From IMG/VR virus record IMGVR_UViG_638341084_000009: a DNA stretch of 24,438 nucleotides. One strand, given 5' to 3'. The position numbers and the translations under genes are program-made. Source of the DNA: a virus. Taxonomy: Duplodnaviria > Heunggongvirae > Uroviricota > Caudoviricetes. Below, piece by piece: positions 3,285 to 4,135 of the stretch. Each line of letters begins with the position of its first letter. Positions within the stretch are counted from its first letter, which is position 1. Under the pieces are notes generated by a model. That model had not been told where the DNA came from. It saw only the letters and a program-made list of their open reading frames with translations, and made no database searches.

Positions 3285-3417
3285 AATGTTCCTCTCAATT
3301 GGTATTATTAATCGCAGTGATAGGATATTGCACAGCTATTGCGCGATATCATCAGAACGCTGTTTGTTACCCTGTAACCAGCAAGCTCAGTCTGTTAACG
3401 GAATTAATGAGGGTTTT

Positions 3418-3945
3418 ATGAAATGTAAAATCATTGCTGCCATTGCCATGCTGACAGCAGCATCATGCGGATACGCAGCAGAACAGGAAGTCCCAATGAA
3501 CCTTGTCAGTGCTGACGGAAAAGAAGTCAGCATTGGAAAAATAACCATTCAGGAGACCCCCTACGGTCTGCTGTTCACACCAGCCCTTCACTCTCTGCCT
3601 GAAGGCATTCATGGTTTTCATGTGCACGAAAAAGGAAATTGCGCCCCGGCACTGAAAGACGGAAAACCGGTCGCAGCATTATCGGCTGGCGGTCACTTTG
3701 ACCCGAAAAACACCGGCAAACATCTTGGCCCCTGGTCTCCGGATGGACACCTGGGCGACCTCCCTGCGCTGTTCGTGACGCATGACGGAAAAGCGAACTA
3801 CCCGGTCCTGGCCCCGAGACTGAACTCATTAAAAGAGATTAAAGGGCGTTCTCTCATGCTTCATGCTGGCGGTGATAACCATCATGACCATCCGGAGCCC
3901 CTGGGCGGTGGTGGTGCGAGAATGGCCTGCGGCATCATTCAATAA
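3418..3945 (+). CDS. sodC: Periplasmic Cu,Zn superoxide dismutase (phage moron)
   Basis: ATG at 3418 preceded by GAGGG RBS. Lipoprotein-like signal peptide [18 protein letters not shown]. Motifs [50 protein letters not shown] match the SodC family. Lies opposite to the flanking tail genes. The ORF-track entry 2911..3945 is an N-terminal over-extension. Confidence 0.85.
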
Positions 3946-3952
3946 TCAGTCA

Positions 3953-3980
3953 GGTAAGGGGCGGGCCCCTTACCTTTATT
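3953..3980 (+). terminator. Rho-independent terminator of sodC
   Basis: Perfect 9 bp GC-rich stem GGTAAGGGG / CCCCTTACC with 4 nt loop, followed by TTTATT, starting 8 nt after the sodC stop. Confidence 0.7.
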
Positions 3981-4093
3981 CCTCAGGACGATAAATCCTT
4001 TCTCCCTGAAAAGAACGGCACATCCTCCCTCTCTGAGTTAATGTTTTTGTCGTGACATAAGAATAATTCCTTACACTCAATCTTCGTAACTCT

Positions 4094-4130
4094 CCCGCAG
4101 TTCCTGTCCGTGAGCACTGCGGGATTTTTT
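4094..4130 (+). terminator. Second plus-strand hairpin with T-run (possible backup terminator shielding the tail operon from antisense read-through)
   Basis: 8 bp stem CCCGCAGT / ACTGCGGG with 14 nt loop, followed by ATTTTTT. No T-run on the minus strand, so it should not stop I-to-J read-through. Confidence 0.45.
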
Positions 4131-4135
4131 CGCTT

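Follow-up and report, generated by a model that had tools for sequence, protein, structure and literature searches.

A SodC-F moron and a probable PasB-family small-RNA remnant in the gap between tail genes I and J of a prophage

What occupies the unusually wide gap between the tail genes I and J of this prophage, and does all of it belong to one insertion? In the window, by which we mean the whole 24,438-nucleotide stretch that was analyzed (IMG/VR record IMGVR_UViG_638341084_000009), both genes lie on the minus strand, and the gap between the J start at 3284 and the I stop at 4136 covers positions 3285 to 4135, or 851 bp. The lambda gap measures 60 nt (I end at 15444, J start at 15505), in agreement with the figures of about 850 bp and about 60 nt in the first-pass annotation. 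The tail assembly gene I (4136 to 4816, minus strand, stop codon 4138-4136) matches Pfam Lambda_tail_I with an E value of 5.6e-16; the RefSeq annotation of matching genomes gives it a shorter start, equivalent to 4136-4717. The tail tip gene J (806 to 3284, minus strand, start codon 3284-3282) is represented by its N-terminal ∼826 codons, with the Pfam domains Ig_J, FNIII-A_GpJ, and Phage-tail_3 and the label gpJ in matching genomes, and its remainder lies beyond an insertion sequence. That element is mentioned for context only. It is the 3' part of an IS66-family element with an ISEc22-type transposase (79 to 805, plus strand; Pfam DDE_Tnp_IS66, 2e-65) inserted in J: homology between the window and the intact J of strain RM14723 begins at 806, and FDAARGOS_1059 shows the identical junction, annotated there as ISEc22 within J. 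As an overall explanation of the gap, we consider it highly probable that a sodC-F cassette at 3285-4029 stands next to an older PasB-family remnant at 4030-4135.

The coding sequence in the gap is sodC (3418 to 3945, plus strand), which Pfam, PDB matches, and ligand alignment assign to the SodC-F type of Cu,Zn superoxide dismutase (SOD), with a product of 175 amino acids. The product matches Pfam Sod_Cu (PF00080) with an E value of 2e-32 and 112.8 bits against a cut-off of 28.9, over profile positions 3-133 of 133, and the closest solved structures are bacterial Cu,Zn SODs (E value, ∼1e-62); both kinds of match are far beyond chance. All of the metal-binding histidines are found on alignment with human SOD1. 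The Cu ligands H68, H70, H93, and H149 correspond to human H46, H48, H63, and H120, the Zn ligands H93, H102, H111, and D114 to H63, H71, H80, and D83, and the catalytic R168 and C171 to R143 and C146. The Cu and Zn ligands, the catalytic arginine, and the cysteine pair show no change across five alleles. C75, constant across alleles, is presumably the disulfide partner of C171, as in bacterial SodC structures; BLAST left it unaligned with human C57 because of a bacterial loop insertion. A Shine-Dalgarno site, GAGGG (3409 to 3413, plus strand), lies 4 nt upstream of the ATG and does not vary among three diverged alleles. The signal peptide (residues 1-20) has the lipobox AASC with Cys17, and residues 1-21 are identical to those of the O157:H7 protein. 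The first-pass description of a complete plus-strand Cu,Zn-SOD gene with its own ribosome binding site and a lipoprotein-type signal peptide is thus borne out in each part.

Judged by its sequence, this gene corresponds to sodC-F1/F2 of Escherichia coli O157:H7 prophages and is already characterized rather than new. SodC-F1 and SodC-F2, encoded by the lambdoid prophages CP-933R and CP-933V, represent the same gene at the same I-J position and with the same AASC lipobox. The whole I-J gap has the same base as one O157:H7 copy at 848 of 851 positions, and the proteins are identical at 173 of 175 residues, differing at residues 61 and 112. The window has the SodC-F1 state at the second of these (T at nucleotide 335, Leu112), and residue 61 is Pro in the window versus Ser in the O157:H7 copy compared. 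The window prophage carries an insertion sequence in J, unlike the O157:H7 prophages that host SodC-F. As far as can be read from the DNA, no functional difference between the two forms is visible. D'Orazio et al. (2008) found sodC-F to be expressed in the lysogen in log phase, in stationary phase, and in anaerobic culture, independently of RpoS; the protein is dimeric and partly lipidated, mutants are peroxide sensitive, the SOD activity of SodC-F1 is 19,380 U/mg, and dual processing, at the lipobox and at a signal peptidase I site after residue 20, was established experimentally (PMC2569942). The data on expression, lipidation, and enzyme activity belong to the O157:H7 protein, and the window variant is Pro61. 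The biology of SodC-F has thus been in the literature since 2008, and annotation of the locus is routine: among 5,426 complete E. coli genomes, about 543 have it, annotated as J / sodC / tail assembly protein.

The 299 bp upstream of sodC are identical to the O157:H7 region at 298 positions, and the 299-bp upstream fragment of O157 sodC-F drove lacZ (PMC2569942). No sigma-70 consensus promoter scored above the scan threshold anywhere in 3100-4400, and a lenient scan yielded only 8-of-12 candidates. From that lenient scan comes a candidate extended -10 element for sodC, TGgTATTAT (3300 to 3308, plus strand), whose TGnTAT(T/G)AT form is retained in the 87% and 81% sodC alleles. Further downstream lies a leader block (3341 to 3364, plus strand) in which TTGCGCGATATCAT is invariant, and the remainder nearly so, in the alignment of three diverged sodC alleles. 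Salmonella sodCI is under PhoPQ control; a by-eye search for a PhoP box here gave a single decent half-site, TGTTTG at 3363-3368, which is not convincing. An FNR-like reading of TTGCG-N4-ATCAT (3341-3354; 7 of 10 positions) was dropped because published data show anaerobic expression.

Comparison with I-J junctions that lack sodC, the approach put forward in the first-pass annotation, did define the boundaries of the insertion. Similarity to the sodC-less phages stops on one side at 3284/3285, precisely where the J start codon lies, and on the other at 4029/4030. The cassette is accordingly 3285-4029 and not 3285-4135, and these breakpoints contradict the earlier view of the whole gap as one self-contained unit. 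The 745 bp of the cassette replace 131 bp of different sequence in the sodC-less Stx phages and do not split a lambda-like junction. Its GC content is 0.506 (0.40 in the upstream part) versus 0.596 for J and 0.604 for I. A Shine-Dalgarno-like sequence for J, GAGAGGAA (3289 to 3296, minus strand), lies inside the cassette, and since homology with sodC-less phages stops exactly at the J ATG, the translation start region of J may in fact be supplied by the cassette.

We consider sodC here to be a known moron that sits in the I-J slot and runs antisense to the tail operon; this analysis adds minor new anatomical detail. In the terms in which the definition of lambdoid morons by Juhala, Hendrix et al. 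(2000) is cited in PMC4104026, the likeness lies in additional DNA separating genes that are neighbors in relatives, a terminator of its own, a published promoter fragment, a base composition distinct from the flanks, and expression from a repressed prophage. Unlike the morons of that definition, sodC did not enter a clean junction but displaced part of the small-RNA gene that had held the slot before it.

Two hairpins follow sodC on the plus strand, in a region (3100-4400) with 6 terminator-like sites against 1.3 ± 1.3 in shuffles. Hairpin 1, the terminator of sodC itself (3952 to 3983, plus strand), begins 6 nt downstream of the stop codon and combines a 10-bp stem (3952-3975; 6 of 10 bp G-C, 4-nt loop) with the weak T-tract TTATTCCT, at a ΔG of about -17 kcal/mol. 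It had been taken at first for a strong terminator at 3953-3980. The stem is strong, but the T-tract is poor, and the heuristic d-score of -0.8 (T-score, 2.67) is borderline, versus +13 for hairpin 2. Hairpin 2 is a PasB-type intrinsic terminator (4093 to 4130, plus strand; stem 4093-4101/4116-4124, T-run 4125-4130), and its T-run ends 5 nt short of the I stop codon. The first-pass annotation was right that a second T-run hairpin is present but not that it forms part of the cassette, as it is common to sodC-less phages. Because the T-tract of hairpin 1 is weak, the heuristic scores suggest that the inherited PasB-type terminator probably acts as a backstop for sodC read-through. On the minus strand, neither hairpin is followed by a T-run, and late transcription toward J is therefore not expected to be blocked.

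The sole fresh point of this re-examination concerns the origin of hairpin 2, which appears to be the leftover of a PasB-family small-RNA gene that held the site before sodC. The last 106 bp of the gap (4030-4135), outside the cassette, consist of a small-RNA body and its terminator. The body (4030 to 4092, plus strand) is promoterless, is part of the backbone common to sodC-less phages, and shares 97% identity with its counterpart in sodC-less Stx phages. In those phages, hairpin 2 is the terminator of a small-RNA gene that has a promoter and lies where PasB does in enteropathogenic E. coli (EPEC) E2348/69. The PasB-type promoter, with a TATAAT -10 and an upstream TTCACA/TTTTCA region, is present in E2348/69 and at three other loci (L001, L007, and L130), and three tandem small-RNA units at one locus (L006) have the -10 as CATAAT or AATAAT. 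In the window, alignments place a degenerate remnant of this promoter at the right end of the cassette (3984 to 4029, plus strand), reading GGCAC-ATCCTCCC versus GGCAC-TTATAATT in relatives. With the -35 region deleted and the -10 changed from TATAAT to TCCTCC, the small-RNA segment of the window is left without a promoter of its own. The terminator stem CCCGCAG/CTGCGGG and its T-run are unchanged in every aligned unit.

PasB of E2348/69 is a transcribed, Hfq-dependent small RNA (Pearl Mizrahi et al., 2021; PMC8550237) of 83 nt, with coordinates and probe given in table S6 of that study. In prophage PP6 it occupies positions 1062-1144 (minus strand) of our locus L009, where I ends at 1056, and so shares with the window segment the I-J slot, the orientation antisense to the tail genes, and the 5-nt spacing between its 3' end and the stop codon of I. 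Over 16 nt at the PasB 3' end, the stem and T-run of the terminator match the window exactly, which is all that BLAST finds, and the PasB Northern probe covers an arm of hairpin 2. The upstream region of PasB is 87 to 95% identical, TATAAT included, in the sodC-less relatives of the window. Unlike PasB, the window unit lacks the promoter, and its 5' and central body is only ∼70% alike in local alignment with PasB nt 8-58, which argues for a family variant and not PasB itself. This assignment is indicated by position, by promoter homology in the relatives, and by the terminator. Rfam holds no family for the unit, as searched with the whole window at the gathering threshold and with three sodC-less I-J gaps by E value; its lone match was a chance snoRNA (E value, 0.48). 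Between 3950 and 4130 there are only mechanical open reading frames of 42 to 96 amino acids, without support. Two other groups of prophage RNAs were considered and set aside: the anti-sRNAs AgvB/AsxR (Tree et al., 2014) are located at the PR' moron site and not in the I-J gap, and HnrS (EcOnc10-12) has its Sakai position 3' of the Rz endopeptidase gene and no match in the window. The supplements of Tree et al. (2014) gave no match for sodC or tail assembly, and sodC is not mentioned in the main text of Pearl Mizrahi et al. (2021) or in the preprint of Zhu, Shabalina and Storz (2026). The published PasB survey used a BLAST word size of 28, which suggests that diverged family members may have been missed.

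Among close copies in IMG/VR, 43 of 43 have sodC in the I-J slot and in the same orientation. The 29 collinear copies show 5 variable sites in 3285-4090, versus 11 to 26 per 100 bp in the flanks. The dominant sodC-F type is a very recent, nearly invariant block in highly mosaic flanks. Five states of the slot were observed: small RNA only, three tandem small-RNA units, sodC with an intact small-RNA gene, sodC with a promoterless body as in the window, and sodC only. The usual occupant of the slot is the PasB-family small-RNA gene, and sodC entered beside it. A search in one genome per species did not identify the sodC donor, as the best chromosomal relatives, in Serratia and allies, reach at most 70% amino acid identity.

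The first-pass annotation had offered a different account, in which the whole 851-bp gap is one self-contained cassette whose two terminators co-evolved as a tandem stop protecting I/K/L. Both hairpins are on the plus strand, T-tailed, and 3' of sodC, and they would act in series, as that account supposes. However, hairpin 2 together with the ∼70 nt upstream of it recurs at 97% identity in many sodC-less Stx phages and prophages, preceded by a promoter, and the same element in E2348/69 is the experimentally detected PasB; one sodC allele (L128/L129) has no second hairpin, and variation among the sodC-carrying copies restarts at about 4091, within the hairpin region. The sodC-less relatives thus contradict the single-cassette account, which we regard as highly improbable. 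It is also unlikely that the sodC-less relatives are themselves sodC deletion derivatives, because they have the complete promoter that is absent from the sodC-F type. No more credible is the view that the prophage is decaying and carries sodC as inert cargo, a gene that is neither expressed nor under selection any more. ISEc22 does interrupt J, and this prophage therefore cannot build a complete tail tip. Yet the sodC reading frame is intact with every catalytic residue present, dN/dS between alleles is 0.09 to 0.13, the upstream region is nearly identical to one with demonstrated promoter activity, and hundreds of genomes retain this allele.

A separate question is whether the promoterless PasB segment still functions. 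Transcripts reading through from sodC could end at the PasB-type terminator and be processed to a 3' untranslated region (3'UTR)-derived, Hfq-binding small RNA, with its output coupled to sodC expression. The contrast between a borderline first and a good second terminator would favor such read-through, among 29 copies the body at 4030-4090 varies at 1 site, almost every copy has an undamaged terminator stem and T-run, and a rarer sodC allele that retains the entire PasB unit with TATAAT indicates that sodC and the small-RNA gene are compatible. Hitch-hiking with a recently spread cassette would explain the low diversity of 4030-4090 equally well, however, and another sodC allele does without the segment altogether, some strains have insertion sequences inside or beside it, and transcript evidence was not found in the literature and supplements searched. 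On balance we consider a functional segment doubtful, though deserving of some weight. The more specific proposal, that the sodC-F cassette captured the resident PasB-family gene and that its small RNA, with an Hfq-type terminator, is now made by processing of read-through sodC 3' ends, under sodC control, we judge rather unlikely. If true, it would be a case of a moron that rewired an older noncoding moron.

With a sodC-F cassette placed beside a promoterless PasB-family remnant, the working of the locus may be outlined as follows. In the lysogen, host RNA polymerase would transcribe sodC from the region upstream of the gene, with no need for Q-dependent late transcription; lysogen transcription has been demonstrated for the near-identical O157:H7 gene, and we infer the same for the window. 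The 175-amino-acid precursor would be exported and cut at one of two places, after residue 20 by signal peptidase I or at AASC by signal peptidase II, giving soluble periplasmic and membrane-anchored pools of a stable Cu,Zn superoxide dismutase dimer, which would clear superoxide outside the cytoplasm and increase tolerance to oxidative attack. The PasB-type terminator, 150 bp downstream of the sodC hairpin, most likely catches read-through before it enters I in antisense. SodC-F matters for pathogen biology as a stable, partly membrane-anchored periplasmic SOD found in prophages of enterohemorrhagic E. coli (EHEC), EPEC, and many other E. coli strains. The addition made here is a cleaner anatomy of the I-J slot, which is an aid to prophage small-RNA annotation and illustrates how cargo has turned over step by step at a single phage junction.

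The likeness first drawn to the sodC genes of EHEC prophages and of Salmonella Gifsy-2 held fully for EHEC, where it is the very same gene, and for Gifsy-2 as an analogue in kind only. SodCI of Gifsy-2 is also a prophage Cu,Zn SOD encoded in the tail-tip module and transcribed against the tail genes. It shares 58% protein identity with the window SodC, with all ligands conserved, and published parallels include a dimeric, stable protein and expression different from that of the chromosomal gene (PMC2569942). However, its slot is not the I-J gap but the one between M/lom-like genes and L. The DNA similarity of ∼65% is confined to the coding region and dS is saturated, and SodCI therefore appears to be a separate placement and not the same cassette.

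The minus-strand tail genes of this lambda-like prophage run in the order H (6487-9066), M, L, K (4714-5457; Pfam JAB/NlpC_P60), I (4136-4816; Pfam Lambda_tail_I), and J (start at 3284; Pfam Ig_J, FNIII-A_GpJ, and Phage-tail_3). A gap of 851 bp (3285-4135) separates the J start codon from the I stop codon, whereas the lambda gap is 60 nt (I end at 15444, J start at 15505). It holds one convincing open reading frame (ORF), on the plus strand at 3418-3945, encoding 175 amino acids, with GAGGG located 4 nt before the ATG. The first-pass annotation had described a gap of about 850 bp with a complete plus-strand sodC gene, its own ribosome binding site, and an orientation antisense to the late operon, all of which the sequence bears out. 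The longest ORF for gene I starts at 4816, encodes 226 amino acids, and overlaps K by approximately 100 nt, as likewise in lambda; the RefSeq start for the matching gene is internal (equivalent of 4136-4717, 193 amino acids).

The sodC product matched Pfam Sod_Cu at 112.8 bits (cutoff, 28.9; E=2e-32), and the top solved-structure matches were bacterial SodC proteins (E ~1e-62), among them Salmonella SodCI (1eqw) and E. coli SodC (1eso). Alignment with human SOD1 gave His68, His70, His93, and His149 as copper ligands and His93, His102, His111, and Asp114 as zinc ligands, and paired Arg168 and Cys171 with human Arg143 and Cys146. Every Cu/Zn ligand histidine, the feature on which the earlier identification had been staked, is present. 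The metal ligands, Arg168, Cys171, and Cys75 are unchanged in all five SodC proteins compared (the window, O157:H7, two diverged E. coli prophage alleles, and Gifsy-2 SodCI). Between the three diverged sodC alleles of the I-J slot, dN/dS is 0.09 to 0.13 at a dS of 0.8 to 0.9, and the protein is therefore under strong purifying selection. Judged by these alignments, the ORF encodes a real Cu,Zn superoxide dismutase.

Several E. coli chromosomes match the 1.5 kb at 3000-4500 with 100% identity, and at least 80% of that stretch occurs in 543 of the 5,426 complete genomes of E. coli, where its annotation is invariably gpJ, sodC, and tail assembly protein. Compared with an O157:H7 copy, the I-J gap is identical at 848 of 851 positions and the 299 bp 5' of the sodC ATG at 298 of 299; the proteins differ at residues 61 and 112. 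Of the O157:H7 genes, sodC-F1 has T and sodC-F2 has C at nucleotide 335, which makes residue 112 Leu or Pro, respectively (D'Orazio et al., PMC2569942), and the window carries T, the F1 state. The lysogen builds up SodC-F proteins in log and stationary phase as well as in anaerobic culture; a lacZ fusion of the 299-bp upstream fragment was made in K-12, and an rpoS mutant background left its expression undiminished, unlike that of chromosomal sodC (data not shown there); sodC-F mutants have raised peroxide sensitivity; and the enzyme is a stable dimer whose AASC motif is a working, partly used lipobox, with protein split between periplasm and membrane (D'Orazio et al., PMC2569942). Expression in the lysogen, which the first-pass annotation had left to be checked, is thus shown for a practically identical O157:H7 gene and upstream region, and the lipoprotein-type signal peptide that it called is correct and already published (PMC2569942). 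By this match the window sodC is a known, widely annotated gene, and the finding itself is real and correctly identified. In lipoprotein sorting, the residue after the lipidated Cys sets membrane targeting (the "+2 rule"); since Gly18 follows the lipidated Cys17, the lipidated fraction is predicted to reach the outer membrane.

Many Stx-converting phages match both flanks and lack sodC. In one of these, an Stx2c phage (L001; LC727888), homology to the window breaks at 3284/3285, the first base past the J ATG, and restarts at 4029/4030, with 131 bp of unrelated sequence between the breakpoints. Thus, 745 bp (3285-4029) stand in place of 131 bp, and on this comparison the J Shine-Dalgarno region is supplied by the sodC cassette. 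The unit had been drawn as 3285-4135; the cassette ends at 4029. In a set of 29 collinear copies with sodC (the window and 28 IMG/VR contigs), five sites vary in 3285-4090, versus 11 to 26 per 100 bp in the I and J flanks. The cassette has a GC content of 0.51, with 0.40 for its upstream part, versus 0.60 in I and J. Diversity and base composition, two independent measures, broadly agree with the cassette ends. A near-invariant block inside very mosaic flanks indicates that one cassette spread recently via recombination through the flanking tail genes. The sodC-less gaps have a 10-bp G+C-rich hairpin (L001 1831-1854 and its equivalent in the EPEC E2348/69 gap) and then TTGTTTTTGTG on the late-gene strand (z = -3.6), hence a terminator-like site along tail-gene transcription just before J; the cassette replaces it.

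The second hairpin, taken earlier as part of the sodC unit, has another origin. The segment at 4030-4135 (hairpin 4093-4124, T-run 4125-4130) is 93 to 97% identical in many sodC-less phages and prophages, where a conserved promoter-like stretch (…TTCACATTTTCACA…TATAAT…) precedes it. PasB, a small RNA of EPEC E2348/69, was probed with AATCCCGCAGTGATCGCGGAGCT in Northern analysis and has coordinates NC_011601 1466343-1466261, minus strand, 83 nt (PMC8550237, table S6). From probe and coordinates, PasB maps to the gap between I and J in prophage PP6; it is antisense to the tail genes there, and its 3' end is 5 nt from the I stop codon. The E2348/69 promoter region aligned at 87 to 95% with those of the sodC-less gaps, and its terminator aligned with theirs and the window's (16 to 27 nt exact); the central body has diverged to ~70% identity (window 4030-4092 versus L009, the E2348/69 I-J region, 1062-1144, minus strand). 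Because the promoter (in relatives) and terminator align but the body is only ~70% identical, the segment at 4030-4130 is here called a PasB-family variant and not PasB. Rfam has no model for the unit. In the window its -35 region is deleted and its -10 reads TCCTCC versus TATAAT in relatives; a scan of 3100-4400 found no promoter-like site for it, and as far as can be read from the sequence the unit is promoterless.

PasB-family units have a common terminator, and promoter where kept; in their 5' and central (likely seed) parts they vary widely from one phage lineage to the next. The PasB survey in the literature ran BLAST at a word size of 28, so Stx-phage and sodC-linked variants may be missed by it. 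In their main text, both Pas papers are silent on sodC. To the extent of the literature searched, the corrected cassette ends and the derivation of the second hairpin from a PasB-family unit are undescribed, modest additions to a known gene.

Since sodC points toward I (convergent) and away from J (divergent), its mRNA cannot be made by phage late transcription. The best promoter candidate is an extended -10 element, TGgTATTAT (3300-3308), kept as TGaTATGAT in both diverged sodC alleles; it would give a leader of ~100 nt with a conserved block at 3341-3364. That block is TTGCGCGATATCATCAGAACGCTG; its first 14 nt, TTGCGCGATATCAT, are invariant and the remainder nearly so, although the alleles are otherwise 13 to 19% diverged in protein, and it includes a weak FNR-like dyad, TTGCG-N4-ATCAT. 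What had been called a strong first terminator does have a strong stem (dG ~-17 kcal/mol), but its T-tract is poor and its d'Aubenton-Carafa-type score is a borderline -0.8, versus +13 for the PasB-type terminator. On the minus strand a T-run follows neither hairpin, so late transcription toward J is not expected to stop at either. Acting in series, the two terminators would probably stop sodC transcription from running into I, as the first-pass annotation proposed, but the second was inherited and not purpose-built.

The I-J slot contains nothing but the small RNA in E2348/69, Stx phages, ST131, and others; three tandem small-RNA units in strain JNEC-KY175; an 81%-identical sodC allele and then a complete small-RNA unit with TATAAT in L130/L131 and six complete genomes at >=99%; the dominant sodC-F type with a promoterless unit in the window and ~540 genomes; and, within a diverged tail module, an 87% allele of sodC without the unit in L128/L129 and ~ten genomes, in some of them on plasmid-prophages. 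Upstream of sodC, the three alleles are alignable throughout, which suggests that sodC entered the slot once, long ago (dS ~0.8 to 0.9), beside a small-RNA gene; the small-RNA promoter would have been lost later, in the sodC-F lineage. In JNEC-KY175 (L006 786-1471), each PasB-like unit has a -10-like hexamer, CATAAT or AATAAT, in place of the TATAAT of PasB, a diverged body of its own, and an invariant CCCGCAG/CTGCGGG terminator, which looks like small-RNA gene amplification and diversification within one slot.

The likeness drawn earlier to EHEC prophage sodC is borne out by the near-identical O157:H7 copy; that to Gifsy-2 holds only in part. Gifsy-2 sodCI, likewise an antisense gene of the tail-tip module, is located between M/lom-like genes and L, and its DNA is ~65% similar in the coding region only. 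It is an analogue that appears to have been placed separately rather than to be the same insertion.

J is broken by an IS66-family element (ISEc22 type, 1-805; transposase ORF 79-768, plus strand), its receptor-binding C-terminal third lying beyond the window, and this junction is common to just 2 of 5,426 complete E. coli genomes. Strain FDAARGOS_1059 is 100% identical to 2-4157 and additionally has IS679 inserted in the 3' end of I, at a position corresponding to 4157/4158. E. coli 24AR0142 (L008) has ISCro1, also of the IS66 family, within the PasB-like body at the equivalent of 4068/4069, just 3' of sodC. Different strains thus show three distinct IS66-family insertions around the sodC cassette: in J, in I, and in the small-RNA remnant.
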